Part shown: piece by piece, positions 7,008-42,380 of the stretch | Numbering within the stretch: the first letter of the stretch is position 1 | How the letters are laid out: each line of letters starts with the position of its first letter | Assembly (NCBI GenBank): GCA_016194705.1 | Contig: JACQAZ010000010.1 | Location: 166-64,165, forward strand | DNA: 64,000 nt | DNA from: Elusimicrobiota bacterium | GTDB lineage: Bacteria > Elusimicrobiota > Elusimicrobia > UBA1565 > UBA9628 | Direction: 5' to 3' | The notes under the pieces: generated by a model | The model's input: the letters and a program-made list of their open reading frames with translations, nothing else | Told to the model about the DNA's origin: nothing | Database searches by the model: none | Made by a program: the position numbers and the translations under genes

Positions 7008-7889
7008 TTATGAAATTTGCGCGAAGGTCCGGAGGGTCTGGGCGTGCAGCGCCGCAGTATCCTTTATACATGCTGCGTAGCCGCCCCCCAAGACAACCGC
7101 GGCGGCTACGCTCCTTGCGCGGCACGCTTCGAAAACGAGCTTGTCGCGCCGCGCAAGGCCGTCTACAGTGAGCTTCAGTCCCCCGAGCACGTCATGTTCA
7201 TAACAGTCGACGCCCGCTTGATAAACGACAAGTTCAGGATTATGCTCGAAGACTTTATCGATATTCTCTTCCAGCAGGCTCAAGAAAGCCGTGTCGCCAG
7301 TCCCCGCTCTAAGTCCCACGTCCAAGGAGCTCTTTTCCTTTCTTTCGGGATAGATGTCTTCCTGGTGCATCGAGAAGGTGAAGACGTCCTTGTCGCCCGT
7401 GAAGATGGCGGCCGTGCCGTTGCCTTGGTGCACGTCGAGGTCGATGACGGCGGCTCTCTTGATCTTGCCGTCGGCCTTCATCCTCAAGATGCCGCAGGCG
7501 ATATCATTGAGGACACAAAAACCTTCTCCGTGGTTCCTGAAGGCGTGGTGGGAACCGCCTCCGATGTGCAGGCCGACGCCGTGCTCCAGGGCGTGGCGGC
7601 AGGCGAGGATGGTCCCGGAGACGGAGATCTGATGCGCCCCCGAGATCTCGGGTGAGAACGGGAGTTCCATGAGAGTCTCGTCGTCCAAGCTCATCTTGCC
7701 GGACAAGACCTTGTCGATCCAATCGGCGTCGTGGGCGAGCAGCAGGTCCTCCTTGGTCGGCAATGAGGGCTCGATGAGCTCGCCCTCGGTCCCCATGCTC
7801 TCGGCGACGAGGCCGAACTTGCGCGTGGGAAAAACATGATCCCCGATGTCGATGACGTACTTCGGGGAATAGACGAAGCTAGGCGGCAC
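7008..7889 (-). CDS. histone deacetylase-family protein (acetoin utilisation AcuC / acetylpolyamine amidohydrolase-like)
   Basis: HDAC-fold motifs are present: HHAFRNHGEGFCVLNDIA, DLDVHQGNGT and GGGY near the C-terminus. Confidence 0.8.
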   Translation of the reverse strand: MPPSFVYSPKYVIDIGDHVFPTRKFGLVAESMGTEGELIEPSLPTKEDLLLAHDADWIDKVLSGKMSLDDETLMELPFSPEISGAHQISVSGTILACRHALEHGVGLHIGGGSHHAFRNHGEGFCVLNDIACGILRMKADGKIKRAAVIDLDVHQGNGTAAIFTGDKDVFTFSMHQEDIYPERKEKSSLDVGLRAGTGDTAFLSLLEENIDKVFEHNPELVVYQAGVDCYEHDVLGGLKLTVDGLARRDKLVFEACRARSVAAAVVLGGGYAACIKDTAALHAQTLRTFAQIS

Positions 7890-9429
7890 GGGGTCTGCGC
7901 CAGAACGCGAAGCCGGCCCAAAAAGCGGTGACCCACAAGACCATGGTGCCGAACCAGTCGCCGTGGCGCGCGTAGAAAGAACGGCGCGGGAAGAAATCCT
8001 CCGCCGCGACCGCCGCGTCCAGGCGCCCGCGCACGCCCAGATCGAGCTTGGCCGTGATGACGCCCCACGGGTCGATGACCGCCGAGATCCCCGTGTTGCC
8101 GGAGCGGATCACCGTGACGCGGTTCTCGACGGCGCGGTAGACGTTGGACTGGAAATGCTGATAAGGCCCCCAGGTGTCCTTGTACCAGCCGTCGTTGGTC
8201 ACGTTGGCCAGGATGCGCGCTCCGCGCGAGGCGTCTCGCTGCGCCCAGCGCGGGAACATCGCCTCATAGCAGATGGTGACGGCCATGGGCCCCAAAGGCG
8301 TCTCCATGAGAGGCTGGCGCGGCTCGCCCTTGGTCAAATCTCCCATCAAGGAAAGGACCGAGATGTAGCGCTCGAGGAAGCGCAGCGGCACGTACTCGCC
8401 GAAGGGGACGAGCTCCCTCTTGTGGTAGACGCCCCTGAGCTTGGCGTCCGGGCCGATCAGGAAGGCCGAGTTGTAGTTGTGGGTCCTGTCGGTCGAGACC
8501 ACCCCCACGAGCTGGTACGAGCCCAGCTTCCGGCTCCAAGTCGCGGCCTCCGCCACCGGCTGACCCTCATCGACCCATTCGGGCAGGGCCGATTCCGGCC
8601 AGACCACCAGAGAGGGGTTCTCGGGACGCGGCCGGGACAGAAGCTCGATGAAATTGCCGCGGATGCGCTCGACGAAGTTCTCATCGAATTTTTGGTATTG
8701 GTCGACGTCTGGCTGCAGGATCTCCACGCGCGCCGCGGACCCCGCGGGTGGACGCGAAACCAGGCACCACTCCCCGTACATCCAGGCGCCGGCGATCAGC
8801 GCCGCCACCGCGGCGAGGTTGGCGGCCGCGGCGCCGCTCGGCTCCCCGTCGTCAAGTTCGAGCCAAGCCGCCGCGACGCACGCATTGGCTGCGGCAACGA
8901 GCCAGCCCAAGCCGTGCGGGCCGAAAATGGAACCGATCTGCAGGAGACTTAGATAGCGCCATTGGGAGTAGGCCGGCAGATCGCCGGCGAGCCTCGGCGT
9001 CCAGCGTTCGGCGGCGACTGACACGGCAGTCCACGCGAGCGCCCACGCCCAGGGCCTGAGCGCCCGCGGGGACCTGGCGCAAAGCCATCCGCTGGCCGCG
9101 GCCGCGGCCGCCCACTCCAGGGCGAGGAAGCCGGCCAGGACGGCCCAGACGGCGGCCGCCGAGGCGACCTGCACGGCCGGGGAGGCCCAGGGCCCGGGAA
9201 CGTGGGCGAACCGGCAGGTGTTGTAGATCCAGTAGACGACCAGGCCGTGAAAGGCGAACCCCGCGGCGAAGCCCAAGCCCGCGCAGTCCCGGGGCGTGCG
9301 CTTGAAACACAGGCCGGCCAACGGAGCCAAGGCCACCCAACCCAGGGGGCATAGGCCGGCGCGTGGCCAGCACAGCCCTATCATCACCCCGGACAACAGG
9401 GCGATGCCGAGGCTCCTTAGCCGTGGCAT
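7879..9429 (-). CDS. lnt: apolipoprotein N-acyltransferase
   Basis: An N-terminal polytopic membrane domain is followed by a CN-hydrolase domain (VVWPESALP...ICYEAMFP...). The start is set at ATG 9429 (MPRLRSLGIALL), 9 nt downstream of the secA stop. The ORF-track N-terminal extension overlaps secA and is rejected. Confidence 0.85.
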   Translation of the reverse strand: MPRLRSLGIALLSGVMIGLCWPRAGLCPLGWVALAPLAGLCFKRTPRDCAGLGFAAGFAFHGLVVYWIYNTCRFAHVPGPWASPAVQVASAAAVWAVLAGFLALEWAAAAAASGWLCARSPRALRPWAWALAWTAVSVAAERWTPRLAGDLPAYSQWRYLSLLQIGSIFGPHGLGWLVAAANACVAAAWLELDDGEPSGAAAANLAAVAALIAGAWMYGEWCLVSRPPAGSAARVEILQPDVDQYQKFDENFVERIRGNFIELLSRPRPENPSLVVWPESALPEWVDEGQPVAEAATWSRKLGSYQLVGVVSTDRTHNYNSAFLIGPDAKLRGVYHKRELVPFGEYVPLRFLERYISVLSLMGDLTKGEPRQPLMETPLGPMAVTICYEAMFPRWAQRDASRGARILANVTNDGWYKDTWGPYQHFQSNVYRAVENRVTVIRSGNTGISAVIDPWGVITAKLDLGVRGRLDAAVAAEDFFPRRSFYARHGDWFGTMVLWVTAFWAGFAFWRRPRAA

Positions 9430-12134
9430 TTCTTGTATTTCTTTCCGGAGCCGCAGTAGCAGGGGTCGTTGCGGCCGAGCTTGCTGATGTCGCGCGGGCC
9501 TTCGTCCTTTTTGAGGATCGATTTCTTCTCGCCGTTGGTCGACGATGGGGCAGCGGGCTGCTGCGGCTGCCCGGGCCGCCCTCCCTCGATGCGCGCGGCG
9601 GGCGGCGGCGGAGGCAGGCGCGGCGCCTGGACGCGGAAGACGTACTCGACGGTCTGCTCGCGGATGCGCGCCATCAGCGCCTCGAAGAGGATGAAGGACT
9701 CCTTCTGGTATTCGATCTTCGGATCCTTCTGCCCGTAGGCGCGCAGGCCGATGGATTTCTTGAGGTGGTCGAGGTCGTAGAGGTGGCCCTTCCAGGCGCG
9801 GTCGATCATCTGGAGCAGGATCATCTTCTCGATGTCGCGAAAATTGTAGCCCTCGAAGTCCTTCTCCCGGCCGGCGTAGCGCTCCTTGACGGCGGAAAGC
9901 AAGGTCTCTTTGAGCGAGGCCCGCTCGAGCTTGGAGATCTCTTCGGGCCGAGGGCTGTACTCGATGCCGAAGGTGCGCTCGAGATAGGCCTTGAGGCTGG
10001 CCAGGTCCCACGACTCCGGATAGGCGTCCTCGGGGCAGCAGACCCCGAGCTTCTCCTGCAGGTCTTCTTCGATCATCATCTGCATCTGCTCGGAGACCGA
10101 CTCGTTGTCGAGGATGCCGTTGCGCAGCTTGTAGATGACTTCGCGCTGCTTGTTCATGACGTTGTCGTAGTCGAGAAGCTGCTTTCTGATGTCGAAGTTA
10201 TGGGTCTCGACGCGGCGCTGGGCTCCCGCGATCTGCCGGGAGACCAGGGGAGACTCGATGACCTCGCCCTCGGTCATGCCGAGCCTCTCCATGATGCCGG
10301 AAAGCCGGTCGCTGCCGAAAAGGCGCATGAGCTCGTCGTCAAGCGCGAGATAGAAGCGCGAGGAGCCGGGGTCGCCCTGACGGCCGCAGCGGCCTCTGAG
10401 CTGGTTGTCGATGCGCCGCGCCTCGTGGCGCTCGGTGCCCAAGACGTGCAGCCCGCCGAGGCCCTTGACGACTTCGTACTCGGCCAGGTCCTGGGGATTG
10501 CCGCCCAGGAGGATGTCGGTGCCGCGGCCGGCCATATTGGTCGCAATCGTCACCGCGCCCTTGTGGCCGGCCTGGGCGATGATCTGGGCTTCCATCTCGT
10601 GGTACTTCGCGTTGAGGACTTGGTGCGGTATGCCCACCGTCCTGAGCATCGCGGCGAGCTTCTCGGACTTCTCGATCGAGCGCGTTCCCACGAGCACGGG
10701 CCTTCCGGCCTTCCAAAGCTCCTTGATCTCGGCGACGATCGCGTTGTATTTCTCGCGCTCGGTGCGGTAGATGAAGTCCGGCTCGTCCTTGCGGACCATC
10801 TTGTTGTGCGTCGGGATTTCGTAGACGCTGATGTTGTAGATCTCGAAGAACTCGTCTTCCTCGGTCATGGCGGTGCCGGTCATGCCGCCCATCTTGCGGT
10901 AGAGCTTGAAGAAGTTCTGGAAGGTGATCGTGGCCAGCGTCTGGTTCTCCTCGCGCGGCGCCAGATTCTCCTTCGCCTCGACGGCCTGGTGCAGGCCGTC
11001 CGACCAGCGTCTTCCGGGCATCAGGCGCCCCGTGAACTCGTCGACGATGACGACCTCGCCGTCCTTGATCACGTAGTCGACGTCGCGGTGGTAGAGATGA
11101 TGCGCGCGCAGGGCCTGGGTGATGTGGTGGACCCACTCGCCCTCCAGGTCGTCGTAGAGGTTGGCGATGCCCAGCAGCTTCTCGCACTTCTGGATGCCAT
11201 CCTCGGTCAAGATCGCGGTGTGGTTTTTCTCATCGACGATCGCATCGTACCCTTTGCCGAGCTCCTCGCCCTTATACTTGGCCTGTATCTCCTCTTCCTC
11301 GGTGATCTTGCGCGCGTTGATCATCGGGATGATGCGGTTGATGATGGCGTAGCGGTCGGTGGATTTCTCGGCCGCGCCCGAGATAATCAGGGGGGTCCTG
11401 GCCTCGTCGACGAGGATCGAGTCGACCTCGTCGATGATGGCGTACTGGGTGGGACGCATGACTCGCTCTTCCTTCGAGGTCACCATGTTGTCGCGCAGGT
11501 AGTCGAAGCCGACCTCGTTGTTGGTGACGTAGGTGACGTCCGAGGCGTAGGACTTGCGGCGGTCCTCGTTGGGCATGTCATGCTGGACAAAGCCGACGCT
11601 CAAACCGAGGAAGCGGTAGACCGGGCCCATCCACTCGCAATCGCGCTTGGCGAGGTAATCATTGACCGTGACCAGGTGGCAGCCTCGGCCGAGCAGGGAG
11701 TTGAGATAGACGGGCGCGGTCGCGACCAAGGTTTTTCCCTCGCCGGTTTTCATCTCGGCGATATTGCCCTCGTGCAGGACCATGCCGCCGAGCATCTGGA
11801 CGTCGTAGTGGCGCAGGCCGATCGTGCGGCGGGAAGCCTCGCGGACCAAGGCGAATGCCTCCGGCAGTATCTCATCGAGAAGCTCCTGCCAGAGCTTCTT
11901 CTCGGCCTTGCGGCGTTCCTCCTCGTCCTGAGGCAGGTCCTGCATCAGGGGCTCGAGCCGCTCCTTAAGCTGCTGCTTGAGGTAGGCCGTTTTCTCCGGG
12001 AAGGCCGAGTCCGGCAGGGCCTTGACCTGTTCTTCAAAGGCGTTGATCTTATCGAGGGTCGGCTTGTAGCGCTTGAGCGTGCGCTCGCTGGGGCTGCCGA
12101 AAATGCGGTAGAAGAGCCAGCGTAGGAAATTCAC
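9417..12134 (-). CDS. secA: preprotein translocase ATPase SecA
   Basis: A 905-aa protein with DEAD-motor motifs and the C-terminal zinc-binding tail CYCGSGKKYKKCHG. Confidence 0.95.
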   Translation of the reverse strand: MNFLRWLFYRIFGSPSERTLKRYKPTLDKINAFEEQVKALPDSAFPEKTAYLKQQLKERLEPLMQDLPQDEEERRKAEKKLWQELLDEILPEAFALVREASRRTIGLRHYDVQMLGGMVLHEGNIAEMKTGEGKTLVATAPVYLNSLLGRGCHLVTVNDYLAKRDCEWMGPVYRFLGLSVGFVQHDMPNEDRRKSYASDVTYVTNNEVGFDYLRDNMVTSKEERVMRPTQYAIIDEVDSILVDEARTPLIISGAAEKSTDRYAIINRIIPMINARKITEEEEIQAKYKGEELGKGYDAIVDEKNHTAILTEDGIQKCEKLLGIANLYDDLEGEWVHHITQALRAHHLYHRDVDYVIKDGEVVIVDEFTGRLMPGRRWSDGLHQAVEAKENLAPREENQTLATITFQNFFKLYRKMGGMTGTAMTEEDEFFEIYNISVYEIPTHNKMVRKDEPDFIYRTEREKYNAIVAEIKELWKAGRPVLVGTRSIEKSEKLAAMLRTVGIPHQVLNAKYHEMEAQIIAQAGHKGAVTIATNMAGRGTDILLGGNPQDLAEYEVVKGLGGLHVLGTERHEARRIDNQLRGRCGRQGDPGSSRFYLALDDELMRLFGSDRLSGIMERLGMTEGEVIESPLVSRQIAGAQRRVETHNFDIRKQLLDYDNVMNKQREVIYKLRNGILDNESVSEQMQMMIEEDLQEKLGVCCPEDAYPESWDLASLKAYLERTFGIEYSPRPEEISKLERASLKETLLSAVKERYAGREKDFEGYNFRDIEKMILLQMIDRAWKGHLYDLDHLKKSIGLRAYGQKDPKIEYQKESFILFEALMARIREQTVEYVFRVQAPRLPPPPPAARIEGGRPGQPQQPAAPSSTNGEKKSILKKDEGPRDISKLGRNDPCYCGSGKKYKKCHG

Positions 12135-12137
12135 TTC

Positions 12138-12611
12138 TTAATTCATCGAGAGATTCTGGCGGAACTTGTCGGTGTTCTCGAGCATGTTCTTGAGATTCTC
12201 GATGGCCTCCTTCCAGGCCTCGGCCTGCCAGGCCCGGGCCTTTTCCCATTGCGAGCCCGAACCCCAGCCCGTGTGGACGAAGCGCAGCAAGGTCCCCCCC
12301 TCGCGGGGTTCCAGGCGGACGAACACCTGCGTCCGGGAGCCCATGACGGTCTCGTACTCCTCCGGGCCGCGCCAGTTGAAGCTCAACTCGGAGTTCGGGA
12401 CGATGTCGGTGATTCGGCAGCCCTTGGTGCTGTTGTGCTCGGGCCGCTCCGGCTCCCAGAATAGCTCGTAGGCCCCGCCGACCGCCGGATCGACGTTGGC
12501 CTTGCGCGTGAGCCAGCGCTCGAGGAGTTCGGGCTTGATCCAGGCCTCGAAGACCTGATCGACCGGATTTTCAATGACGACCGAGATGTCGATATCGCGC
12601 GCTTTGGACAT
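12138..12611 (-). CDS. SRPBCC / AHSA1-domain protein (activator-of-Hsp90-ATPase-homolog-like)
   Basis: A 157-aa protein with an Aha1_N/SRPBCC-like pattern (VIENPVDQVFEAW...ELLERW...). It ends 3 nt upstream of the secA start. Confidence 0.65.
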   Translation of the reverse strand: MSKARDIDISVVIENPVDQVFEAWIKPELLERWLTRKANVDPAVGGAYELFWEPERPEHNSTKGCRITDIVPNSELSFNWRGPEEYETVMGSRTQVFVRLEPREGGTLLRFVHTGWGSGSQWEKARAWQAEAWKEAIENLKNMLENTDKFRQNLSMN

Positions 12612-12683
12612 GGGTCCCCCGCGGGGTTTTCCTCAATAATGAGTTTAGCATTTCAATGGCCGCGTCGTCTTAAACGCGGCGCT

Positions 12684-13460
12684 CTAGCCCCGCAGCTCGA
12701 GTATGCGCTGGCGGGCCGCGAAGAGCTTCTCGCCGAAATGGGCGGGAGCCGTGTCGAGGAAGCGTTGATAGGAGGCCGCCGCCTCGGACTTGAGGCCGAG
12801 CGCCTCCTCGGTCAGGCCCTTCTCGTACCAATGCCCGGGATTGGCGCCGTCCTTCGAGACGGCCTCGCTGAGGCAGACCAGAGCGTCGCCGAGACGCCCC
12901 AGGCGCCTCAAGCAGCCGCCCTTCTCGGCCAGAACTGGCGCCGGCGGCGAGCCAAAAGACAAGGCCTTGTCGAGACATTCCAACGCCAATTGGTCCTGGT
13001 TGATCGCCCCGAGGCAGACGCCCTTGTTGAACCAGGCCATCGCGCTCTTGGGGTCGAGGGTCAGGGCCTGCTCGTAGGAATGGGCCGCTTCGTCGAACTG
13101 GCGCAGCTCCTGCAGGCAGCGCCCCCGGCTTAAGTGCGCGGCGGGCTCGCGCGGATCGAGCGAGATGGCCTTGTCCAAGAGGGCCATCGCCTCCTCGGCG
13201 CGCGCGAGCATCGTCAGGCACACGGCCAGCCCGCCGATGACTTCGTACTCGCCCGGGACAAATTCGACCGACCTTACGAACGCCTCGAGGGCCTGATCGT
13301 ATTGTCCCGCGGACATGAGTTCGGCGCCTTGGCTGGCCAAAGCCGAGGCCTGGTTGCGGTCGGCATCCGAGGGGACGCTCTTGCGGCCCTCGCCGAAAAT
13401 AAGGGCTATTTTATTGCGCAGGTCCATGCCGGTGTTAAGGGATTCCCCTAATCCTAGCAA
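12684..13460 (-). CDS. tetratricopeptide (TPR) repeat protein
   Basis: Repeated 34-aa A/L/Y-rich TPR units are visible (e.g. AWFNKGVCLGAINQDQLALECLDKALS and AHLSRGRCLQELRQFDEAAHSYEQALTLDP). The exact start is uncertain. Confidence 0.75.
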   Translation of the reverse strand: MLGLGESLNTGMDLRNKIALIFGEGRKSVPSDADRNQASALASQGAELMSAGQYDQALEAFVRSVEFVPGEYEVIGGLAVCLTMLARAEEAMALLDKAISLDPREPAAHLSRGRCLQELRQFDEAAHSYEQALTLDPKSAMAWFNKGVCLGAINQDQLALECLDKALSFGSPPAPVLAEKGGCLRRLGRLGDALVCLSEAVSKDGANPGHWYEKGLTEEALGLKSEAAASYQRFLDTAPAHFGEKLFAARQRILELRG

Positions 13461-13482
13461 AAGGACTGCGCGACGAGCGCTA

Positions 13483-15372
13483 TTATTTCAGATGGGCGCG
13501 GCGGATGCGGTCGCCGGGCTCGAGACGGTCGACGACGTCCATGCCGGAGACCACCGAGCCGAAGACCGTGTAGCGCCCGTCGAGGTGCGGGGTCGGTATG
13601 TGCGTGATGAAGAGCTGGCAGCCTCCCGTGTCCTTGCCGGCCTTGGGCATCCCGACCGAGCCGCGCACGAAGGGCAGGCGGTTGATCTCGTCGCGCAGCG
13701 AGAAGCCGGCGTCGCCCCAGCCGCTGCCGCGGGGGTCGCCTCCCTGCACGACGAAGCCCGAGACCACCCGGTGCCAGATGGTGCCGTCGTAGAGACCGCG
13801 CTTGACGCTCCGAAGGAAGCTGGCGGCATGCAACGGCGCCTCGTCGGCGGCCAAGGAAAGCGCGATGTCGCCTTTGTCGGTCTCGATGACCACGGTCGCC
13901 GGGGCGGGGAGGCGCGCCAAGTCCGGCGAAGGTTCAATGTGGCTCTGAGCCACCATTTTTGCGGCCTGGCTGAATAAGTTGAACCAATTGCTCGGGCACG
14001 ACGACGGATGGACAGAATTGATCTCTTGCAGCGCTTTCGTCGCATCATCATTAAGTTCTGGATATCGATGAGCGGTCTCGCCTTGGAGTAGTGATATCAA
14101 TCCTTGGCAGAGTGCCGCTGATTTTCTTTCACCGGCAGCCTCGGCCGCCGTCCCGACAAGCTCGAGAGAGGCCTTCGGGTCGCGCAGGACCGCATCGAGG
14201 ATATCGTCAACCTCGGTCGAGCTGCTCTTGGCCAGCGCCTCCAGCGCGGCGGATGCGACGCGCGCATCCTTGTCCTTGATTGCCTCCTTCAATAGCGCCT
14301 CGCCGCCGGGAACGGCTCCCAGACCTTCATCGGCGCGAGACCGGACCCACCAATTCTCCGAGCGGGCTCCGCGGCCGAGCGCATCCAATGCCTGATTGGG
14401 CCGCAGCTTGGCCCAGGCGAGCAGAGTTTGGCCCAGCACCATCGGCGAATCGTCGTTGATCAGCTCATCGAGCCAATAGGCGAGTTTGGGGTTGCCGGTG
14501 GCGGCCAGGGCGTCGGCGGCCGCGGCGCGCACGTGAGCGGACTCATCCGAAAAAATCTTCTGGTCGATGTAATCCGCCCGGCCGGCCAGGCCCAAGGCGC
14601 GCGCGGCCTCGGTGCGCACGAGGTAATCGTTGTCGGTCAGGTCCTTGGCTAGATTCTCCCAGGGTGCCGCGGTCTTGAGCTGGGCCAGCGCCCGGCAGGC
14701 GAAGAGCCGCACCGAGTTGTAGGGATCGCCCGCGGCCTCGGCCAAGGCCTTGGCCGCCCGGGACTCGGGAAAGCGGCTGAAGGCGTAGACGGCGCGCCAG
14801 CGCACGTCGGGCTGGGAATCCTTGAACAGCGCGGTCAGACCCTCGACGGCGGCGCTCGAGTACTCGGGCACGCGCTTCAAGAACCTCTGGCGGAAAAGAG
14901 CCAGGGCCGCCTCGCCGCGCACGGCCGGGTCCTCGTCCTTTAGATAGGCGAGCAAACGAGGCTCGGCCTCGGGGCCAGCGGTCTTTCCCAGCGCCTCGAC
15001 CGCGGCTTGCTTGAGCCCTCCGCGAACGCCGCTGGAGAACACCGCCAGGGCCGCGGCGGCCCGCAGGCGGGTCGTCGATGAGACCTCCGGCTCGGCCAAG
15101 CCCATTTGTCCCAACGAAAAAACCGCCTGCTCGTTGACTCCGACATCTCGGTCTGAGAGCCCGCTCAGGAGCGCTTGGAGATACGCCTGCGACTGTATGC
15201 GGCCCATCGCGAGGTACGCGGCCTTGCGGGTCTTGGCCGAGGAAGCGGCGGCGGCCTCGAAGAGCACGGCGGAGTCCGCAACTCGCAGGTCTTGCTCCCT
15301 CAATATGGCTTGCCTTGGGATGTTCGCGCAGCCGGCGAGCACGACGAGGGGCAGAGCCCTGAAGAAGCGCAC
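13483..15372 (-). CDS. lipoprotein fusing N-terminal HEAT/PBS-lyase-type repeats (about 470 aa) to a C-terminal cyclophilin-type peptidyl-prolyl isomerase domain
   Basis: The N-terminus has a lipobox (MRFFRALPLVVLAGC). Repeated DxxVRxxAxxAL HEAT units follow. The C-terminal 150 aa match cyclophilin (HRVVSGFVVQGGDP...GSVGMP...QLFITH...LDGRYTVFG). Confidence 0.8.
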   Translation of the reverse strand: MRFFRALPLVVLAGCANIPRQAILREQDLRVADSAVLFEAAAASSAKTRKAAYLAMGRIQSQAYLQALLSGLSDRDVGVNEQAVFSLGQMGLAEPEVSSTTRLRAAAALAVFSSGVRGGLKQAAVEALGKTAGPEAEPRLLAYLKDEDPAVRGEAALALFRQRFLKRVPEYSSAAVEGLTALFKDSQPDVRWRAVYAFSRFPESRAAKALAEAAGDPYNSVRLFACRALAQLKTAAPWENLAKDLTDNDYLVRTEAARALGLAGRADYIDQKIFSDESAHVRAAAADALAATGNPKLAYWLDELINDDSPMVLGQTLLAWAKLRPNQALDALGRGARSENWWVRSRADEGLGAVPGGEALLKEAIKDKDARVASAALEALAKSSSTEVDDILDAVLRDPKASLELVGTAAEAAGERKSAALCQGLISLLQGETAHRYPELNDDATKALQEINSVHPSSCPSNWFNLFSQAAKMVAQSHIEPSPDLARLPAPATVVIETDKGDIALSLAADEAPLHAASFLRSVKRGLYDGTIWHRVVSGFVVQGGDPRGSGWGDAGFSLRDEINRLPFVRGSVGMPKAGKDTGGCQLFITHIPTPHLDGRYTVFGSVVSGMDVVDRLEPGDRIRRAHLK

Positions 15373-15393
15373 GCAAAATTATATATTGTTCGC

Positions 15394-16452
15394 GTGAGGA
15401 CGCCCAAGCGTTTGGCCCCCTGGCTGCTCGCGCTGACCCTCGGTTCATGCGTCTCGCTCGAGGACACCCACATGCCCCGCGGCGGCATCCTCAAAGACCA
15501 GCGCACGGTGGTTCTGGTCTTCGCCGGACCCGGCCCCGTCATGAGCCAGGAGGACAACAAGGCCGAGACCGCGGCCAAGATCACCCCGGGCCTGGCCTAC
15601 ATCGTGCAGTCCTCCCAGGACGAGAGGGACCTCGCCTCCTCGCGCGACTTGGCCCAGTACCTGCCGCCCTTCGAAGCGGCCAAGGAGTTCGCGGCCGAGC
15701 TCGACAAGGTCTTGGCCTCGGTCGGGCATCCGGGCAAGTTCCTCTCGCCCGCGGAGGCGGGCATCGCCAAGGAACAGCTCGACGCCTTCAACAAATCCTC
15801 GGACCTGCTCGATTGGCGGCTGCGCTACTACATCCAAAACCCCGACCACCCGGTCCCGCGCAACTACTCGACCTTGCTTGAGCTCGACGACGCGTTGATC
15901 TTCGAGGCCGACCTCGCCTACGGAGTCGCCCAGGACGACCAGCAGAACGCGACGCCCACGCTTACGGCGGTGGTCAAGCTCTACAAGGCCGGCACGATGC
16001 GCCTCTTGTGGCGCCACGAGGCCGCGCTCGAAGACAAGCCGGGGCAGCGCCTGCTCTACGACTTCAAGCGCGACGGAGGCGACCTCATCAAGAAATACCG
16101 CAGGATGATGCCGGCCCTTGCGCAAAAGCTCGGCGACGACTACAAGAAGGAGCTGCAGGGGGCCGGCCTCTATCTCCCGGCGCGCCCCGCGGCAGTGGCG
16201 GTCTCGACTTCCGCGCCTTCGGGCTTTACGCCTTACAGCTTCGCGCCCTCGGCCCTTCCCGGGATGGCCGTCTCGACGGCGGCGGCGCCGGCGCCCTTCG
16301 TGCCGCCGCCCGGAGTCTCGATGTCGACGACCACGGCCGCGGCGCTCGGGCTGACTCCCATCGGGGGCGCATCGGCGGAGACTCAACCCGCACAGCAGCC
16401 GCCGACCCAGACCCAGATGCAGGGGCCCAAGTCGGGGAACTCTCCGCGCTAG
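15394..16452 (+). CDS. hypothetical lipoprotein with a Pro/Ala/Thr-rich low-complexity C-terminal tail
   Basis: A GTG start at 15394 gives VRTPKRLAPWLLALTLGSC, a lipobox. The ORF-track ATG at 15175 overlaps the convergent gene and is rejected. Confidence 0.6.
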   Translation: MRTPKRLAPWLLALTLGSCVSLEDTHMPRGGILKDQRTVVLVFAGPGPVMSQEDNKAETAAKITPGLAYIVQSSQDERDLASSRDLAQYLPPFEAAKEFAAELDKVLASVGHPGKFLSPAEAGIAKEQLDAFNKSSDLLDWRLRYYIQNPDHPVPRNYSTLLELDDALIFEADLAYGVAQDDQQNATPTLTAVVKLYKAGTMRLLWRHEAALEDKPGQRLLYDFKRDGGDLIKKYRRMMPALAQKLGDDYKKELQGAGLYLPARPAAVAVSTSAPSGFTPYSFAPSALPGMAVSTAAAPAPFVPPPGVSMSTTTAAALGLTPIGGASAETQPAQQPPTQTQMQGPKSGNSPR

Positions 16453-16453
16453 G

Positions 16454-18037
16454 CTAGGGGATAGCGCTGGTCTCGAACATCTTCTCGGCCGGCACGACCC
16501 TGACATTCTGCTTGGGAATGTCGAGCGGTTCGTTGGCCCAGACGGCGTCGCGCCGCAGGATGTCAAGTTTGGGCTGCGGAACGAGGTAGAGCTTCCTGCC
16601 GTCCTCTTCCTTGACGTCGATGTTGTAATCGTGAGGGTCCTTGCCCCAGACCGGCGCCTCGGAGGCGATGCCCTCGATGATCTTGGCCGTCTCGCCCTTC
16701 TTCGTCACGACCACATACTTCATGTCCTTGGCCTGAAGGTACTTCTTGATCGCGGCGTTGACCTGCCCACAGGTGACGGCGTCGACGCGCGCGAGGTAGC
16801 CGGGAAGATACCCCGGTTCCATGCCGTAATAGGCGTCGTCCAAGCGGCTGGCGAGCAATCGATCGGCGGTCTCGGCGAAGCTCAAGTACAGGATCTTGGC
16901 CTTGTTCTTCGAGAGCGCGCACTCCTCCTCGGTCAGGCCCGTCCGGATGAAGTTCCCGAGCTCCCAGGTCAGCGCGCGCAGTATATGCGGCGCGAACTGG
17001 TGCGCCACGGGCCGGGCCCATAGGCTGAAATACTGATAGCGCCTCGGAACGTTCAAAGGCGGGAAGAGGTTCTCGGGACGGCCCTCGAAGTGCTCGATGT
17101 AGGAGTAGTCGCCGTAGTTGTAGCCGCGCTCCTCCCTGATGACGTGGTACAGGTGCGAGAAGTCGTCGCGATGCGTGCCGAACCAGACGTTGGCGATGTA
17201 AAGAGGCCAAAAATCCGCGTCCTTGCGCGTGAGCGGAAGCGGGTAGCCCGCGTGCAGGCCCGTCGAGATCGCGTTGGGGAGCTCGATGACCAGCGCGCTG
17301 CGGCCGTGGACCGCCGCCGGAGCCTGAGGAACTTGGCTCTCGTAGGGCTCGGCCTTGACCTCCCCCATGCCGGCGACGGCATTCCTGATCTTTTCGATGA
17401 GGGCCTTATCGTTCGAGCTCACGCCCACGGTGATGTTCTCGGGCCGGTAATGGGTCTTGTAGAAGCGCAGCAGCGCCTCGCGGTCGACCTTCAGCAGCCC
17501 TTTCTCGGTGCCGCCGTCCCAATGCGCGTACGGCGTGCCCTCGAAGACGACGTTGTCGAGCGAGGTGAGCCCGAAATTTTCAATCTCCTCGAGGCGCAGT
17601 CCCGAACGCAGATATTGGAGGACCTCGCCCCTGACGCGCTCGAGTTCCTTGGGGTTGAATAGCGGCTTGGTCAGCATGGGCCGGAGCACTTCATCGATGT
17701 ACCGATCGGCCACCTCGCGCGGCGCCGAAAAGTGGATGACGGTGGTCTCCTTGGCGACCTGGGCGTTTGGGTAGGCAGCCGTGCCCCAGGGACGCGTCAA
17801 GTCGGCGAGCTTCTCCTTGGTGACGGGATGCAAGGGATCTCCGAAACTCCCCTCGCGGAGCATGGCGCCGGTCAGCGCCGCTAAGCCCTCCAAACCTGGC
17901 GGATCTGACGCAGAACCGGCCCTGACCATCACCTTGATCTTGACGAGCGGCGCCTTCGAATCCAAGGTCACGACTTCGAGCGCCCGCGCCGACGGCGCGA
18001 GCAGGACGGCGAGGATCAAAATCTGTCTCATGGTCAT
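16454..18037 (-). CDS. M16-family (insulinase-like) peptidase subunit lacking the HxxEH zinc motif, a probable non-catalytic partner
   Basis: A signal peptide is followed by the M16 inactive-domain fold. Its start overlaps the upstream M16 gene by 4 nt. Confidence 0.75.
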   Translation of the reverse strand: MTMRQILILAVLLAPSARALEVVTLDSKAPLVKIKVMVRAGSASDPPGLEGLAALTGAMLREGSFGDPLHPVTKEKLADLTRPWGTAAYPNAQVAKETTVIHFSAPREVADRYIDEVLRPMLTKPLFNPKELERVRGEVLQYLRSGLRLEEIENFGLTSLDNVVFEGTPYAHWDGGTEKGLLKVDREALLRFYKTHYRPENITVGVSSNDKALIEKIRNAVAGMGEVKAEPYESQVPQAPAAVHGRSALVIELPNAISTGLHAGYPLPLTRKDADFWPLYIANVWFGTHRDDFSHLYHVIREERGYNYGDYSYIEHFEGRPENLFPPLNVPRRYQYFSLWARPVAHQFAPHILRALTWELGNFIRTGLTEEECALSKNKAKILYLSFAETADRLLASRLDDAYYGMEPGYLPGYLARVDAVTCGQVNAAIKKYLQAKDMKYVVVTKKGETAKIIEGIASEAPVWGKDPHDYNIDVKEEDGRKLYLVPQPKLDILRRDAVWANEPLDIPKQNVRVVPAEKMFETSAIP

Positions 18038-19410
18038 TTCCCCTTCTTGGCCGAAGGCTCGAAGGCCAAGGTCAGCACGACTCTGTTCTCCGGCCTGAAG
18101 TAATTCTGCGCGAGCCGGTCGATGTCTTCGGGCTTAAGCTTCTGAACGGAATCTAGAAGCTGGTCCAGGGCCTGGGGATCGCGATTGAAGCGGTAGTACT
18201 GGGCCATCACGTTGGCAACGTTGCGAGGGCTCGAGAGGCCCGAGAGAAAATCGTAGCGGTACTTGCTTTGGATGACCTTAAGGAGGTCCGCGGCGCCCGG
18301 AGACTTCGAGAAGCTCTTCAGGGCGTCGAGGCCATCCTCGATGTCCTTGATCGCGTCGTCGAAGTAGGCGTCGCCCTTCGCTGCAAGCTTCTCTTTGAAG
18401 AGTTCGGCCGAAACGATGATCGCACGCGGCTCGGCGCTCTCGAAGCCGTTGGTGCCCTCGTCGAAGCCGATGCCGCTGGCGGTCTGCTTCTCGTACCGCA
18501 ATTTCTTCTGCAGGGGTGCTGCGGGCGAGATCAGCAGCTCGTCCAAGAGTTCGGCGGCTCCCGCCTCGGGCGAGCCGAGCTTGAAGGCCGGCATCCGATA
18601 CGCGACCCAGGCCTGGGGCGCGATGTCGGAGTCCCAGGCGACGCGTTCGCGGCGGTCTCCAGAGGGTTCGGGGCCCTTCTCCTTGACCGGCGGGATGGGC
18701 TGGGCCTTCCAGTCGGAATAAAGCGGCCCGAGAGTCTTGAAGACCTCCTCGGCCTTGACGTCGCCGGCCACGACGACCACGACGCCGTTGGGACGGTAGT
18801 AAGTGTCGTAGAACTTCTTGGCCGCCTCGTAGTGCTTGGGCATGTCGATGACGTCGTCGTAGTAGCCCATCGTCGTGTGGCCGTACGGATGATTGGGGTA
18901 GAGCAGGTCGTAGACCCTCTCCTCCATCTTCATCGATGGGTTCGAGGCGACTTTGCGGTACTCGCCGAGTACCGCGCCCGTCTCTGTCTGGAAGATCTTC
19001 TCGTTGATCGAGAGCGCCTTGAAGCGCGAGGACTCAAGCAGGGCTAGCCCCGCGAGGTTCGAGGTGAAGGTCAGCGGGTGGTAGTAGGTGATGTCGAACC
19101 AGGTCCAGGCGTTGTTGTCGGCGCCCATGCGGTTGATCGCATCGTTGTAGCCGCCGTCCTTGCCTTTGAAGCGGTGCGTAAACAGTATGTGCTCGAAGAG
19201 GTGCGCGAGGCCCGTGGCGCCCCGCTGCTCCTCCTTTCCAGAGCCCGCGAGCACCATCGTATTGTAGCTCAGCACGTCCTTAAACTCGGGCATCTCGATG
19301 ACGAGGATGTCGAGGCCGTTGGGCAAGGTCTTCTTCTTGACCGGATAGGGGAACGCGCCCGCCGAGGCCCAGCCGGAGCAAAGCGCCAAAATCAGGGATA
19401 GGGTCTTCAT
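18034..19410 (-). CDS. M16-family zinc peptidase, catalytic subunit
   Basis: A signal peptide is present, and HLFEHILF is the HxxEH inverzincin motif. Confidence 0.85.
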   Translation of the reverse strand: MKTLSLILALCSGWASAGAFPYPVKKKTLPNGLDILVIEMPEFKDVLSYNTMVLAGSGKEEQRGATGLAHLFEHILFTHRFKGKDGGYNDAINRMGADNNAWTWFDITYYHPLTFTSNLAGLALLESSRFKALSINEKIFQTETGAVLGEYRKVASNPSMKMEERVYDLLYPNHPYGHTTMGYYDDVIDMPKHYEAAKKFYDTYYRPNGVVVVVAGDVKAEEVFKTLGPLYSDWKAQPIPPVKEKGPEPSGDRRERVAWDSDIAPQAWVAYRMPAFKLGSPEAGAAELLDELLISPAAPLQKKLRYEKQTASGIGFDEGTNGFESAEPRAIIVSAELFKEKLAAKGDAYFDDAIKDIEDGLDALKSFSKSPGAADLLKVIQSKYRYDFLSGLSSPRNVANVMAQYYRFNRDPQALDQLLDSVQKLKPEDIDRLAQNYFRPENRVVLTLAFEPSAKKGK

Positions 19411-38604: not shown

Positions 38605-39228
38605 TCAGCGTTTGGCTCTGCCCTCGCGGATGTGCGCCATCAAGTACCGCCCCAGCGACTCGGTCCCGCCGAGCAGGTCCTTGACGTTTTTGGAGAAGTA
38701 GTTGTACGCGATCACACAGGGGATGGCCACAAATAATCCGACCGCCGTGGCGACTAGCGCCTCGGAGAGGCCCTGCATGACGACCTCGGGGCCGCCGGTG
38801 GTCTGGGCCAGATCATGGAAGGCGCGGATAACGCCCAAGACCGTGCCGAAGAGGCCGATGAAGGGCGCGTTGCTTCCGAGGGTTCCCAGGACGAGCAGCC
38901 ATTTCTCGAGCCCCTCCTTCTCGGCCAGGCTCGCCGCGATCAAGAGGTCCTCGACGCCCTCGGGGCCGTGGTGAGAGCGCGCGAGCGCCGTCTTGAGTAT
39001 CCGCCCCGCCGCTCCCGGATGCCGCTGCACGGTTTTTTCGAGCGACGGGAGATCCTCGCCGAGCCCCGCCATCACGGCTTGGCGCAGGGCGCGAAAGCCC
39101 TGGTCCTCGCGCCTCAGCGCGAAGAAGCGCTCGAATATGATCGCGACCGCCGCCAATGAGCACAACAGCAGGGCGTAGATCACCCAGTCGCCGCCCGTCA
39201 GGGCCAAGGCCCTCAGAACCGAAACCAT
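38605..39228 (-). CDS. exbB: MotA/TolQ/ExbB proton-channel protein
   Basis: GLFGTVLGVIRAF is the ExbB/TolQ signature. A GGAGG RBS is present, and the ATG overlaps the upstream stop (TAATG). Confidence 0.85.
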   Translation of the reverse strand: MVSVLRALALTGGDWVIYALLLCSLAAVAIIFERFFALRREDQGFRALRQAVMAGLGEDLPSLEKTVQRHPGAAGRILKTALARSHHGPEGVEDLLIAASLAEKEGLEKWLLVLGTLGSNAPFIGLFGTVLGVIRAFHDLAQTTGGPEVVMQGLSEALVATAVGLFVAIPCVIAYNYFSKNVKDLLGGTESLGRYLMAHIREGRAKR

Positions 39229-40883
39229 TAGTCCTCCTTGAACTTCTGCAGACGCAGCAGCGACGAGACCAGTTCGGCCTTGACCGACGGATTGGCCTCG
39301 TTCTGCAGCTCAATCATGAGCTTGCGGTAAAGATCGCCGGCGTCCGATGGCCCGCCGAGTTCGCCCAGGTAGTGGGATGCCATCGCCCGCACGAACCAGT
39401 CCTTATGCTGATAGAGCCGCAGCAGGATTTCGCGCCCAAAAATATTCCCCATACGCCAGAGCCCAGCCGCGGCGTAGACCTGCATGGCCAGCGAGGAGTC
39501 GGCGCGCGCCGCCCCGTCGACGATGAACTGGTTCCCCGTTTCCCCCTGCACGAGCAGCGATTCGAGAGCCCCGAAGCGCACCGTGATGTTGGCGTTGTTG
39601 AGCATGCCCTGGAAGAGAGGCGTGTAGCGCAGCTCTTTGGTGTAGGCCAAGGCGACCATCGCCGCCGCCTGAATCTGCACGTTGCTGCCCAGGCGGGCCG
39701 CGTCCTCGAGAGCCTGGTCGATGCCGTAGTCCTTCGAGCCGGCCAAGCCGTCGGTGAGCAGGAAGCCCAGCTGGGTGTAGCGCGTCTTGAGGTTGTAGCC
39801 GTCGAGCGTGCTGATCTTGTTAAGATTGCCGACAGAGGCGTCGAGCTGCGCTTGCGGGTCGGGCCTGGCGTCCTGACGATCGCGCAGCAGGCGCAGCAAG
39901 GTCGACCCGATCGAAGGGTCGAGGATGGCGTCGGCGGCGAGCTTGACGCGCGGAGCCGAGATGACCAGAGCCTCGAGTTGGAAGACCGGCTCCGAGTCGG
40001 GGATCGCCGACTTCGAGGCCGGGGCCGGCTCCTCCTTGACCGGTGCCCGAGCCGCCTTGTTGGCCGCCCGCACCGCGGCCGCTTTTTGCGGGAAGAGCTT
40101 TAACGCCGCGATGCAGTCCTCCGCGAGCGTAAAATCGTTCTGCTGCTCGCGGCCCAGGCGCGAGACCAACTCATCGTAGTCGGCCGCCGAGCCGTAGTCG
40201 CCCAGATACCGGGCGGCCATCGCGCGCACGAGCCAGGAGGCGTTGTCGAGGTAGCCGCGCAGCGCGGGCAGGCCGCGCGCGTCGCCGGCGCCAGCCAGCG
40301 CGCGGGCGGCGAACACGCGGAGGATCGGTTCGGGCTCGTTGCGCGAGTCCTGGCCCATCGCGAACCACTGGAGCGACTTGTCGGGATGCCCCCAAACGGT
40401 GAGGGCCTCGAGCGCTCCGAAGCGCACGGCCGGGTCGAGGTTGATGAGGGCCTCGCGAAAAACGTCGAAGTCGGCGAGGTCGTGGGCCCGGGCCAGCGCG
40501 ATGAGGGCGGACGCGCGGGTCTCCCCATCGCGCTCCCAGCGCGCCAGCTCGATGAGCTTCTTGCGAAAATCGGGATCGTCATTGCGGGACAAGGCCTCGG
40601 CCAATGGGACACCGATGCTCAGGTACCGGTTCCGCAGAGTGAAGCCGATCGGGGAGCCCAGGGCCAATATGTCGGCGGCGGGAGTTCCGGAGATCGCAAT
40701 CATGTCGACTTTCTCGTGGTCCTTGTTCTGGAGCAAGTCGACCAGGGCGTTGTTGATCGCGGCGTCGGTCTTGACGGGCCCCCCGGGCACGACCGGCCCC
40801 GAGGTCTCCTTGACGGTGATCTCGCCGCAGGCGCAGAACAGGGCCGCGGCCAGAATGAGGGCGCTCTTGCTCATGCCGTGCAT
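39228..40883 (-). CDS. HEAT/PBS-lyase repeat lipoprotein (551 aa)
   Basis: A lipobox (LFCACG) is present. Repeated units include DPAVRFGALEAL, SWLVRAMAARYLG, ITVRFGALESL and DWFVRAMASHYLG. Confidence 0.75.
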   Translation of the reverse strand: MHGMSKSALILAAALFCACGEITVKETSGPVVPGGPVKTDAAINNALVDLLQNKDHEKVDMIAISGTPAADILALGSPIGFTLRNRYLSIGVPLAEALSRNDDPDFRKKLIELARWERDGETRASALIALARAHDLADFDVFREALINLDPAVRFGALEALTVWGHPDKSLQWFAMGQDSRNEPEPILRVFAARALAGAGDARGLPALRGYLDNASWLVRAMAARYLGDYGSAADYDELVSRLGREQQNDFTLAEDCIAALKLFPQKAAAVRAANKAARAPVKEEPAPASKSAIPDSEPVFQLEALVISAPRVKLAADAILDPSIGSTLLRLLRDRQDARPDPQAQLDASVGNLNKISTLDGYNLKTRYTQLGFLLTDGLAGSKDYGIDQALEDAARLGSNVQIQAAAMVALAYTKELRYTPLFQGMLNNANITVRFGALESLLVQGETGNQFIVDGAARADSSLAMQVYAAAGLWRMGNIFGREILLRLYQHKDWFVRAMASHYLGELGGPSDAGDLYRKLMIELQNEANPSVKAELVSSLLRLQKFKED

Positions 40884-40904: not shown

Positions 40905-42380
40905 TCATTCCCGCACGATCTCGACCGAAAAGACCTTTAACCGGGCTGCGGAGTCCTTCCAGCACTGCCGCGAAAGATGCGCCTTCTGCGAGCACAGTTC
41001 GCCCAGGAATGACTCCTTGTCCTTGAGCTGCTCCCAGACCTGCGGGAGGAAGACCCCGGAGCTTCCCCCTTCCTCGACGATGACCCCGTCGCCCTTGCGG
41101 ATCTCGGAGGCCGACTTGACCTCCTTGGACTGGGAGAGCCGCGAGACCTCGATGCGCAGGCCGGGAAGCTCGGCGGCCTGCACGGGCTTGAAGCGCGAGT
41201 CGCTGACAGCACTTGCCACCGCGTTGTGGGCCACGGACTCGACGAGGCTCTCCTGGGCCTGCAGCGAGCCGATGCAGCCGCGCAGCTCGCCAGAGGCCTT
41301 CTCGAGGGTCACGAAAACCGCGGCGGGCAGGTTCAGCCTGGGGTCCTTCGACAGCGCGACGGCGGGCATCTTGCCCGAGGCGAGGTAGCCTTCGATGCTG
41401 CGGCGCGCCAGGACCAAGAGCTCTTTTTTCTCGGAACCGTCGAGCGCGGCCGGGACCGCGGCGGAGACTCCCTTCAAAAAGACGACCGCGGCGTATCCTA
41501 CGACATGATGATAATCCCGCTCGGAGACGACGTCGCCCGAGTTGATGTGCGAGAGAACGCGCGCCTGCGTCGCGCCCAGCTCGCGCGCCGCGGTCATGAC
41601 GGCGGTCACGGCCCCCTCGCCGCAGTAGGTCACCGCAAGGCTCTCGAGGCCGCGGTTCATGAGCAGCCGGTTGGTCAGCCAGAAATAGGCGGGGTCCAAG
41701 GTCTTCAAGGCCTCGAGCGTCGTCCGATCGACGATGTCGGAGAGAGGCCCGCTGGGGTAGTGAGATTGATCGGAGGAGGCCACGAGAAGCACGCGCTTGC
41801 CCTTGATGGCGGAGGCCAGCGCGCGGCCGATGATGCGCGCGGACTCGAGGTCCTGCGTGTTCATGACCATGCCGACGATTTTGACGGATCCCAGACGGTA
41901 CCGCAGGAATGGGACCTGGACCTCGATCGAATGCTCCTTGTCGTGAGCCCGAGCGTCGAGCTTGATCAAGCTCGTGGTCTTGACCAATGCCCCGGCCAAG
42001 GCCGCGTCGTACTCCAGCGAGCCCTCTGGGGTCGCGTAAGCCCCAGGGTAAATCGCCGCGCCCTCGAGCTCCTTGTAATGCCCGGTTCCGAGCACGACCA
42101 CGGTATCCCAGTGCCCGGGAGCGAGCAGCTTGTAGGCGCGCGCCGCGGTCGCGCCCGAGTACTCAAGCCCGGCGTGAGGGACGAGCACGGCGACGATCTC
42201 GCCCGGGACTTTCTCGTTTGGCGCGGCTTTCAAAAGGCTCTCTACGAGCGCCTCGAGAGCCTTGGCGGACAGGGGATAGAAGCGGCCGGCCACCGACGGC
42301 AGTCTAACCGCCGCGGCCGCCGCCGCGGCGGTCAAAAAAGACAGGAAAATCCAGCCCGATCTCTTTAATAATCCGTTCAC
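40905..42380 (-). CDS. fusion of a Memo-like domain (AmmeMemoRadiSam system protein B family) with a C-terminal AMMECR1 domain (protein A family), preceded by a predicted signal peptide
   Basis: The GTG start at 42380 gives a signal-peptide-like N-terminus (MNGLLKRSGWIFLSFLTAAAAAAA). The conserved Memo start VRLPSVAGRFYP...LVPHAGLEYSG follows. The C-terminal AMMECR1 region carries RGCIGSL and VFLPQVWE. Confidence 0.8.
   Translation of the reverse strand: MNGLLKRSGWIFLSFLTAAAAAAAVRLPSVAGRFYPLSAKALEALVESLLKAAPNEKVPGEIVAVLVPHAGLEYSGATAARAYKLLAPGHWDTVVVLGTGHYKELEGAAIYPGAYATPEGSLEYDAALAGALVKTTSLIKLDARAHDKEHSIEVQVPFLRYRLGSVKIVGMVMNTQDLESARIIGRALASAIKGKRVLLVASSDQSHYPSGPLSDIVDRTTLEALKTLDPAYFWLTNRLLMNRGLESLAVTYCGEGAVTAVMTAARELGATQARVLSHINSGDVVSERDYHHVVGYAAVVFLKGVSAAVPAALDGSEKKELLVLARRSIEGYLASGKMPAVALSKDPRLNLPAAVFVTLEKASGELRGCIGSLQAQESLVESVAHNAVASAVSDSRFKPVQAAELPGLRIEVSRLSQSKEVKSASEIRKGDGVIVEEGGSSGVFLPQVWEQLKDKESFLGELCSQKAHLSRQCWKDSAARLKVFSVEIVRE

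Follow-up and report, generated by a model that had tools for sequence, protein, structure and literature searches.

Background

To our knowledge, protein folding in the periplasm has been worked out almost entirely in the Proteobacteria (SurA, Skp, DegP, FkpA, PpiD and PpiA). [quoted passage not shown] Here we report a computational analysis of a gene at 13483..15372 of a 64,000-nucleotide stretch of DNA from an Elusimicrobiota bacterium (contig JACQAZ010000010.1, positions 166 to 64,165 of the forward strand; the whole stretch is called the window below), whose product, HEAT-cyclophilin, carries an N-terminal export signal followed by a long HEAT-repeat solenoid and a C-terminal cyclophilin.

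A related layout has been described for TLP40, AtCYP38 and anaCyp40, which are likewise exported or membrane-anchored and in which an all-helical domain at the N-terminus precedes the cyclophilin at the C-terminus, and anaCyp40 shows PPIase activity in vitro (PMC8967839). We consider it probable, with moderate confidence, that HEAT-cyclophilin is an exported, probably lipid-anchored, two-domain periplasmic PPIase in which the cyclophilin isomerises X-Pro bonds and the solenoid holds clients or a partner nearby.

Results

Domain architecture

The gene and the parts of its product are as follows.

13483..15372, minus strand: complete HEAT-cyclophilin gene, GTG start, TAA stop, 629 amino acids (open reading frame (ORF) list; stop codon confirmed)
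15328..15372, minus strand: signal peptide with lipobox, residues 1-15, MRFFRALPLVVLAGC, with a probable signal peptidase II (SPase II) site before Cys15 (sequence)
13948..15315, minus strand: HEAT/PBS-type alpha-solenoid, residues ~20-475, 29 helices in about 14 hairpins (Pfam, AlphaFold2 (AF2), Foldseek)
13897..13947, minus strand: interdomain linker, residues 476-492, non-helical, predicted local distance difference test score (pLDDT) 71-88 (AF2)
13486..13896, minus strand: cyclophilin-type PPIase domain, residues 493-629 (Pfam PF00160, match to PDB 2mvz, invariant catalytic columns)

A first-pass annotation, made from the sequence alone, had read 13483-15372 as a single ORF joining HEAT repeats to a cyclophilin PPIase, and this is borne out by the ORF list, by Pfam and by the AF2 model. 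HEAT-cyclophilin is thus a real gene, one continuous ORF and no frameshift fusion; an identical protein is held in NCBI as 'MAG: HEAT repeat domain-containing protein [Elusimicrobia bacterium]', and the same 629-amino-acid protein, again identical, is present in an independent read-level assembly (Logan). The domain check that the annotation had proposed, of the InterPro type and carried out here with Pfam, identifies the N-terminal repeats as HEAT-type and the C-terminal half as PF00160, which disposes of the concern that the repeats might not be HEAT/ARM-like. In the solenoid, HEAT_2 is matched over 7 stretches with E=8.7e-43 (145 bits against a cutoff of 27.7), HEAT scores 63.7 bits against 23.5 and HEAT_PBS 31.2 bits against 20.9, while HEAT_EZ is also matched, above or near threshold. 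PF00160 (Pro_isomerase) is matched at residues 494-620 with E=2.7e-37, or 128.9 bits against a gathering cutoff of 21.7.

Matches to named NCBIfam equivalogs fall short. Those of the solenoid, to PBS-lyase/NblB-type HEAT proteins, are all sub-threshold, and from such sub-threshold matches it follows that HEAT-cyclophilin is the ortholog of no named NCBIfam equivalog. The PpiA and PpiB models (NF008151 and NF008057) reach 63.9 and 52 bits where 308 and 297 are required, scores so far under the cutoffs that the protein is an ortholog of neither.

The AF2 model, built from a 56-sequence family alignment, has a mean pLDDT of 93.5 over the whole protein and a predicted template modelling score (pTM) of 0.91. 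The solenoid helices lie at pLDDT ~97; the beta-barrel spans 493-629, with its strands, across 493-628, mostly above 90. The pTM suggests that the interdomain geometry is fixed and the architecture of the modelled protein rigid. When compared with the PDB using Foldseek, the solenoid retrieves the PP2A A subunit, karyopherin beta2 and alphaRep proteins with probability 1.00 and E down to 6.7e-11, the template modelling (TM) score against alphaRep being 0.83; alphaRep proteins are also found by sequence (E about 1e-20 to 1e-31). The cyclophilin domain has 2mvz as its best PDB match by sequence (E=1.4e-33, 43% identity), and its barrel superimposes on that structure with TM 0.86 and a root mean square deviation of 2.2 A; PPIL1 and related chains give TM 0.79-0.82. 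Among the PDB sequence and Foldseek matches there is no solved chain with both a solenoid and a cyclophilin.

Conservation across phyla, expressed as mean column identity, is 0.67 for the cyclophilin and 0.36-0.46 for the solenoid, and is lowest in the linker (0.29). The best-conserved solenoid positions lie in its N-terminal third, where the cap-helix motif E27-D28-x-R30 recurs as 'EDxR' from Myxococcota to KSB1; R49, F85, G88, L109, G129, W192, Y196 and R200 are conserved as well.

Export and anchoring

At the N-terminus, MRFFRALPLVVLAGC, there are a charged n-region, a hydrophobic core that is short (the h-region) and a lipobox, L12-A13-G14-C15. Under the strict rule that we applied, a charged n-region is followed by at least 6 uncharged residues ahead of a lipobox of the form [LVI][ASTVI][GAS]C. 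Two strict expressions, one PROSITE-style and one G+LPP-style, find this N-terminus one h-region residue short, because R5 shortens the h-region, and a relaxed pattern matches it. The window also encodes the lipoprotein maturation enzyme Lnt (LNT_N and CN_hydrolase in Pfam).

Every full-length homolog has an N-terminal export signal, be it a lipobox, an AxA-type site or a transmembrane anchor. The strict lipobox pattern is matched by 53/120 Elusimicrobia-type homologs and 94/120 Myxococcota homologs, and across phyla the lipobox Cys is the majority state, its column being conserved to at least 70%; many close relatives have AxA signal peptidase I (SPase I) sites in place of the lipobox, and the versions from Zixibacteria, GN15 and Ignavibacteria have an uncleaved N-terminal transmembrane anchor. 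Since the signal is always there and its type varies, an extracytoplasmic location is predicted to be a conserved property of the family, and membrane tethering, to judge from the signals, is common in it and not obligatory. The lipobox tether of the first-pass annotation therefore divides in two: export stands, and a lipid anchor does not stand as a firm claim, the signal being borderline here and variable in the family. Lipidation of the window protein is probable, not certain.

Distribution of the family

Related loci were scanned with one genome taken per GTDB species, and the counts given below come from the best 80 of them (numbered with L). An end-to-end match is found at 76 of these 80, from at least 12 phyla, which answers the suggestion that the architecture be sought in related phyla. 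The phyla include Elusimicrobiota, Planctomycetota, Acidobacteriota (many of them Vicinamibacteria), Gemmatimonadota, Bacteroidota/Ignavibacteria/Chlorobi and Calditrichota, and further lineages are KSB1, Zixibacteria, GN15, Armatimonadota, 'Uabimicrobium' and Myxococcota. In a collection of 5.8 billion proteins, the 120 best homologs all combine HEAT repeats with PF00160 in 455-655 amino acids, and an exhaustive profile search at E<=1e-30 returned 9,141 representatives of clusters formed at 50% identity; among its best 150 matches the majority are single and end to end, in proteins of 590-705 amino acids. The profile also matches giant proteins in the metagenomic collection (P0249, P0286, P0292, P0294, P0296, P0298 and P0309), which are 2,400-6,000 amino acids long and contain 11-26 separate HEAT-solenoid stretches each.

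Homologs carry the JGI label 'cyclophilin family peptidyl-prolyl cis-trans isomerase/HEAT repeat protein'. Among cultured Myxococcaceae, a member is present in each of the genera sampled (Myxococcus, Corallococcus, Stigmatella, Archangium, Cystobacter, Hyalangium and Pyxidicoccus) and is labelled 'peptidylprolyl isomerase' in RefSeq, and Myxococcus offers a tractable entry point to the family. An inner-membrane lipoprotein of M. xanthus found by proteomics, MXAN1176, is a cyclophilin reported to have Lys at position +2 (PMC3222651). Its identification as a HEAT-cyclophilin is unsupported, as judged by comparison of the +2 residue only, which is Val, Ala or His in the Myxococcus orthologs.

A full-text search of the literature found no description of a bacterial HEAT-cyclophilin fusion. 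The family thus appears to be one of modular exported PPIases that is catalogued by automated annotation, apparently without experimental characterisation. The architecture had been presented as unusual, and so it is relative to model organisms; overall it is not, since it belongs to a large multi-phylum family already named by automated annotation. The HEAT-cyclophilins are a cleanly defined and uncharacterised family that is annotated already and would not surprise a specialist.

Proposed function and its alternatives

We picture the protein as being exported by Sec and then, most likely, processed at the lipobox before Cys15. The mature form would comprise the ~455-residue HEAT-type solenoid, the 17-residue linker and a compact cyclophilin resembling GeoCyp, the Geobacillus kaustophilus cyclophilin of entry 2mvz. 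The cyclophilin most likely converts X-Pro bonds between cis and trans in proteins that are secreted or belong to the envelope, and the solenoid most likely offers an extended protein-binding surface by which unfolded clients, or a fixed partner, would be kept near the active site. Client binding by the solenoid is suggested by analogy, and we infer, in the same cautious sense, the lipidation, the enzymatic activity and any link to the Sec machinery.

Several points weigh against this proposal. The h-region of the signal peptide is short and the strict lipoprotein patterns are not matched. The conservation of the solenoid is modest (0.36-0.46), and much of it falls at positions expected from the PBS/HEAT repeat motif, so that a specific binding site is not evident. 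Gene context is unconserved across phyla, and the secA linkage discussed below lies inside a collinear region. Finally, a search of the available literature found no experimental data for any member of the family.

The foremost alternative makes the solenoid a docking scaffold that would hold the cyclophilin on one particular machine of the envelope, such as the Sec holotranslocon at its periplasmic face, so that the protein would be PpiD-like; we judge this unlikely while giving it real weight. Most family members are tethered to the membrane through a lipobox or a transmembrane anchor, the nearest structural relatives, the PP2A A subunit and the karyopherins, are scaffolds or adaptors for folded partners, and the rigid architecture suggested by the high pTM would suit such a role. 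Many family members, on the other hand, are soluble SPase I proteins. Gene order also bears on this alternative, the downstream neighbours in the window being the following.

12684..13460, minus strand: TPR protein, downstream of HEAT-cyclophilin across a 22-55 nucleotide gap (Pfam TPR_1, TPR_2)
12138..12611, minus strand: AHSA1/SRPBCC protein (Pfam AHSA1, E=1.2e-23)
9417..12134, minus strand: secA, a downstream neighbour that is conserved in the Elusimicrobia clade (Pfam SecA domains)
7879..9429, minus strand: lnt, apolipoprotein N-acyltransferase (Pfam LNT_N and CN_hydrolase; start mapped)

The minus-strand array of the first-pass annotation (TPR protein, AHSA1-like protein, secA and lnt) is hence present as described, with the ATG of lnt at 9429 and an overlap of 13 nucleotides with the end of secA. 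Its order of HEAT-cyclophilin, secA and lnt recurs at the Elusimicrobia loci L001, L003-L006, L014, L040 and L082, and secA follows only 55-83 bp after HEAT-cyclophilin in L006 and L082, which counts in favour of docking at the translocon. SecA is nevertheless cytoplasmic, so adjacency to its gene says little about periplasmic contact. Moreover, gene order in the Elusimicrobia region is broadly shared, many unrelated genes included (upstream, both the window and L082, a closed 3.1 Mb Elusimicrobiota genome, have homoserine dehydrogenase and threonine synthase), and the secA linkage therefore need not be functional and is weak evidence of coupling.

A second, independent lineage with Sec-gene proximity is provided by the Vicinamibacteria/Acidobacteriota (L020-L079), in which yajC and secF, confirmed with Pfam, lie ~4-6 kb downstream of the ortholog at 16-21 loci. 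The secA-lnt pair downstream in Elusimicrobia, together with yajC and secF within 5 kb in Vicinamibacteria, lends weak support to an export-linked role and counts for the docking scaffold. Against it, Sec-gene proximity is seen in only 2 of about 12 phyla, and by our estimate ~5% of such comparisons would show it by chance; two of about twelve lineages is, on this rough estimate, marginally above chance. When the flanking ORFs of the 80 loci were clustered, no cross-phylum neighbourhood emerged and the only clusters were lineage-specific (Vicinamibacteria and Elusimicrobia).

The TPR and AHSA1 genes were considered as conserved partners and rejected: a homolog of the TPR protein is found at 0/80 related loci and one of the AHSA1 protein at 1/80 (L040), no signal peptide is evident in either sequence, and both are lineage-specific inserts. 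What survives of the export and lipoprotein-maturation context first proposed is accordingly the secA-lnt linkage in one collinear Elusimicrobia clade, the TPR and AHSA1 genes being incidental and the linkage absent outside Elusimicrobia.

Two side observations concern these neighbourhoods. In the Vicinamibacteria loci the ortholog adjoins a conserved, convergent TPR-like protein and lies downstream of a deoxynucleoside kinase. In L082 the gene calls divide lnt into two genes that overlap (LNT_N, 12614-13543; CN_hydrolase, 13540-14130), which points either to a frameshift or pseudogene or to an lnt that is truly split.

A broader version of the folding-factor proposal, which we put forward as doubtful, would see in HEAT-cyclophilins the chief periplasmic folding factor near the membrane in many diderm phyla other than the Proteobacteria (here Elusimicrobiota, Acidobacteriota, Planctomycetota, Gemmatimonadota, the FCB group and Myxococcota), a rigid solenoid capturing polypeptides as they emerge from Sec, with the E27-D28-x-R30 cap and repeats 1-5 as the client or translocon site. 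If true, these proteins would fill the role that PpiD and SurA have in Proteobacteria using unrelated domains, feeding clients to a tethered cyclophilin; and should they prove to be an important folding factor of the envelope, the view of how proteins of the outer membrane and secreted proteins mature would be widened beyond the model organisms.

Under a further alternative the cyclophilin would be a non-catalytic proline-recognition module, and the protein purely binding or structural in the envelope. The catalytic residues were mapped by alignment to the human CypA sequence. In the active-site region CypA M61 is replaced family-wide by Val, A101 by Pro, N102 by Lys, W121 by His (H596) and H126 by Tyr (Y601 in the window protein), substitutions that would favour such a module, as does the existence of non-catalytic cyclophilin-like domains in other contexts; Tyr at the H126 position is also present in active E. 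coli cyclophilins. Yet CypA R55, F60, Q63, A103, Q111, F113 and L122 correspond to R535, F540, Q543, A578, Q586, F588 and L597, all invariant in 56/56 family members, and among them the equivalents of R55, F60, Q63, Q111 and F113 matter most for catalysis. Furthermore, 2mvz, the nearest relative with a solved structure, is deposited as 'Peptidyl-prolyl cis-trans isomerase', and no other part of the protein is as well conserved as the cyclophilin (mean 0.67). Because the catalytic residues are invariant, a pseudo-enzyme is quite improbable, and we infer from the alignment that the domain is an active PPIase.

The notion that two separate genes were joined by a frameshift or assembly artefact, for which no supporting point was found, can be dismissed as having practically no chance of being correct, given the continuous ORF, the identical protein from independent reads, the confident AF2 model across the domain junction and hundreds of homologs of the same architecture, including those in complete cultured Myxococcaceae genomes and the closed Elusimicrobiota genome.

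Promoter region and divergent gene

Upstream, HEAT-cyclophilin faces a divergent gene across an AT-rich gap of 21 bp (15373-15393), in and beyond which lie the following.

15378..15383, minus strand: TATAAT, a -10-like box that ends 5 nucleotides ahead of the HEAT-cyclophilin GTG (sequence)
15382-15387, plus strand: TATATT, a -10-like box that ends 6 nucleotides ahead of the GTG of the divergent gene and overlaps TATAAT
15394..16452, plus strand: conserved lipoprotein of unknown function, about 352 amino acids, MRTPKRLAPWLLALTLGSC..., strict lipobox match

With its upstream gene divergent and TATAAT 5 nucleotides before its start, HEAT-cyclophilin does head its transcription unit, as had been proposed. 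A Shine-Dalgarno sequence is absent from both genes, and the arrangement of TATAAT, 6 or 7 nucleotides and start is kept at the orthologous loci L001, L002, L003, L005 and L006. This -10-only signal was spotted by eye and by comparison of orthologs; a sigma-70 scan of 7500-16600 found no promoter satisfying the two-hexamer rule, and terminator-like sites there occur at the background rate. The TATAAT box near a GTG that lacks a Shine-Dalgarno sequence makes a promoter of the leaderless type probable, and the two overlapping boxes suggest a compact bidirectional promoter giving leaderless mRNAs. Some deposited gene calls of HEAT-cyclophilin homologs ('MIYDFRMR...', '...RIYNRGV...') appear to translate the promoter.

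A TATAAT-like hexamer also stands 4-9 nucleotides before seven other long-ORF starts, at 19410(-), 19464(+), 21898(-), 36926(-), 6998(-), 47221(-) and 50512(+), of which 19410 and 19464 form a divergent pair. The survey, of 142 ORF starts in the window, was crude and had no control for chance; in this Elusimicrobia genome, starts of the leaderless type may be common among genes that come first in an operon.

In the divergent lipoprotein the lipoprotein signal (MRTPKRLAPWLLALTLGSC) is canonical and the C-terminal tail is rich in Pro and Ala. A homolog with 33-38% identity lies upstream and divergent at 7 Elusimicrobia loci, and searches of Pfam, NCBIfam and the PDB gave no match. In the deposited and Logan gene calls it starts later and loses its signal peptide.

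Other genes in the window

The following two genes adjoin each other elsewhere in the window.

39228-40883, minus strand: second HEAT lipoprotein, 551 amino acids (HEAT_2 E=1.3e-27; strict lipobox match)
38605-39228, minus strand: MotA/TolQ/ExbB-family gene, beginning at the base where the second HEAT lipoprotein ends

The second large HEAT lipoprotein, which the earlier annotation had also noted, is real on the evidence of its HEAT_2 and lipobox matches. It was rejected as a paralog of HEAT-cyclophilin, having 28% identity over 162 residues and a likeness at the level of the repeats only. The base shared by its end and the start of the MotA/TolQ/ExbB gene suggests that the two may be co-translated, in a Tol/Ton-like cluster. 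At 40905-42380 on the minus strand, a single 491-amino-acid ORF encodes a Memo-like domain (PF01875) joined to an AMMECR1 domain (PF01871); its N-terminus appears signal-peptide-like. Beside the divergent lipoprotein gene, just upstream, two adjoining genes for M16 (pitrilysin/insulinase-like) peptidases occupy 16454-19410 on the minus strand with a 4-nucleotide overlap (18034-18037); both N-termini are signal-peptide-like, and the pair may be an exported heterodimeric processing peptidase.

Comparison with known systems

The solenoid half of HEAT-cyclophilin shares its fold and repeat motif with the PP2A A subunit (PR65), karyopherin-beta and alphaRep, and there is no orthology. The PP2A A subunit and the karyopherins are cytosolic or nuclear scaffolds and the alphaReps are synthetic; unlike HEAT-cyclophilin, none has an attached enzyme domain. 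Cyp40 likewise combines a cyclophilin with helical repeats, but in the reverse order, its cyclophilin being N-terminal and its repeats, which are TPR and not HEAT, C-terminal.

As regards the catalytic domain, GeoCyp is of the same compact bacterial type as the window protein. GeoCyp and the E. coli enzymes PpiA and PpiB are stand-alone proteins of ~150-190 amino acids, to which the window protein adds a solenoid. TLP40, AtCYP38 and anaCyp40 differ in that their helical domain is of ~120 amino acids and five helices, the longer four of which form a bundle (DUF3084-type), in place of a 29-helix solenoid (PMC8967839). They are thylakoid-lumen and cyanobacterial proteins confined to the green lineage, unlike the multi-phylum HEAT-cyclophilins, and the best PDB sequence and Foldseek matches listed include no chain of AtCYP38 or anaCyp40.

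With SurA, PpiD and FkpA the likeness lies in the modular plan. PpiD is membrane-anchored, like most HEAT-cyclophilin members. The PPIase domain of these proteins is a parvulin or an FKBP, whereas that of the window protein is a cyclophilin, and the domains are not homologous; the accessory domain is here a HEAT solenoid of ~455 residues as against a SurA_N-type or dimerisation domain there, and Pfam and NCBIfam give no parvulin, FKBP, SurA_N-type or FkpA N-domain match in the window protein. HEAT-cyclophilin would thus be a functional analogue, not a homologue, of the modular periplasmic PPIase-chaperones SurA, PpiD and FkpA, and many other double-membraned phyla would hold a different modular solution from theirs, a cyclophilin on a long HEAT arm that is usually tethered to the membrane.

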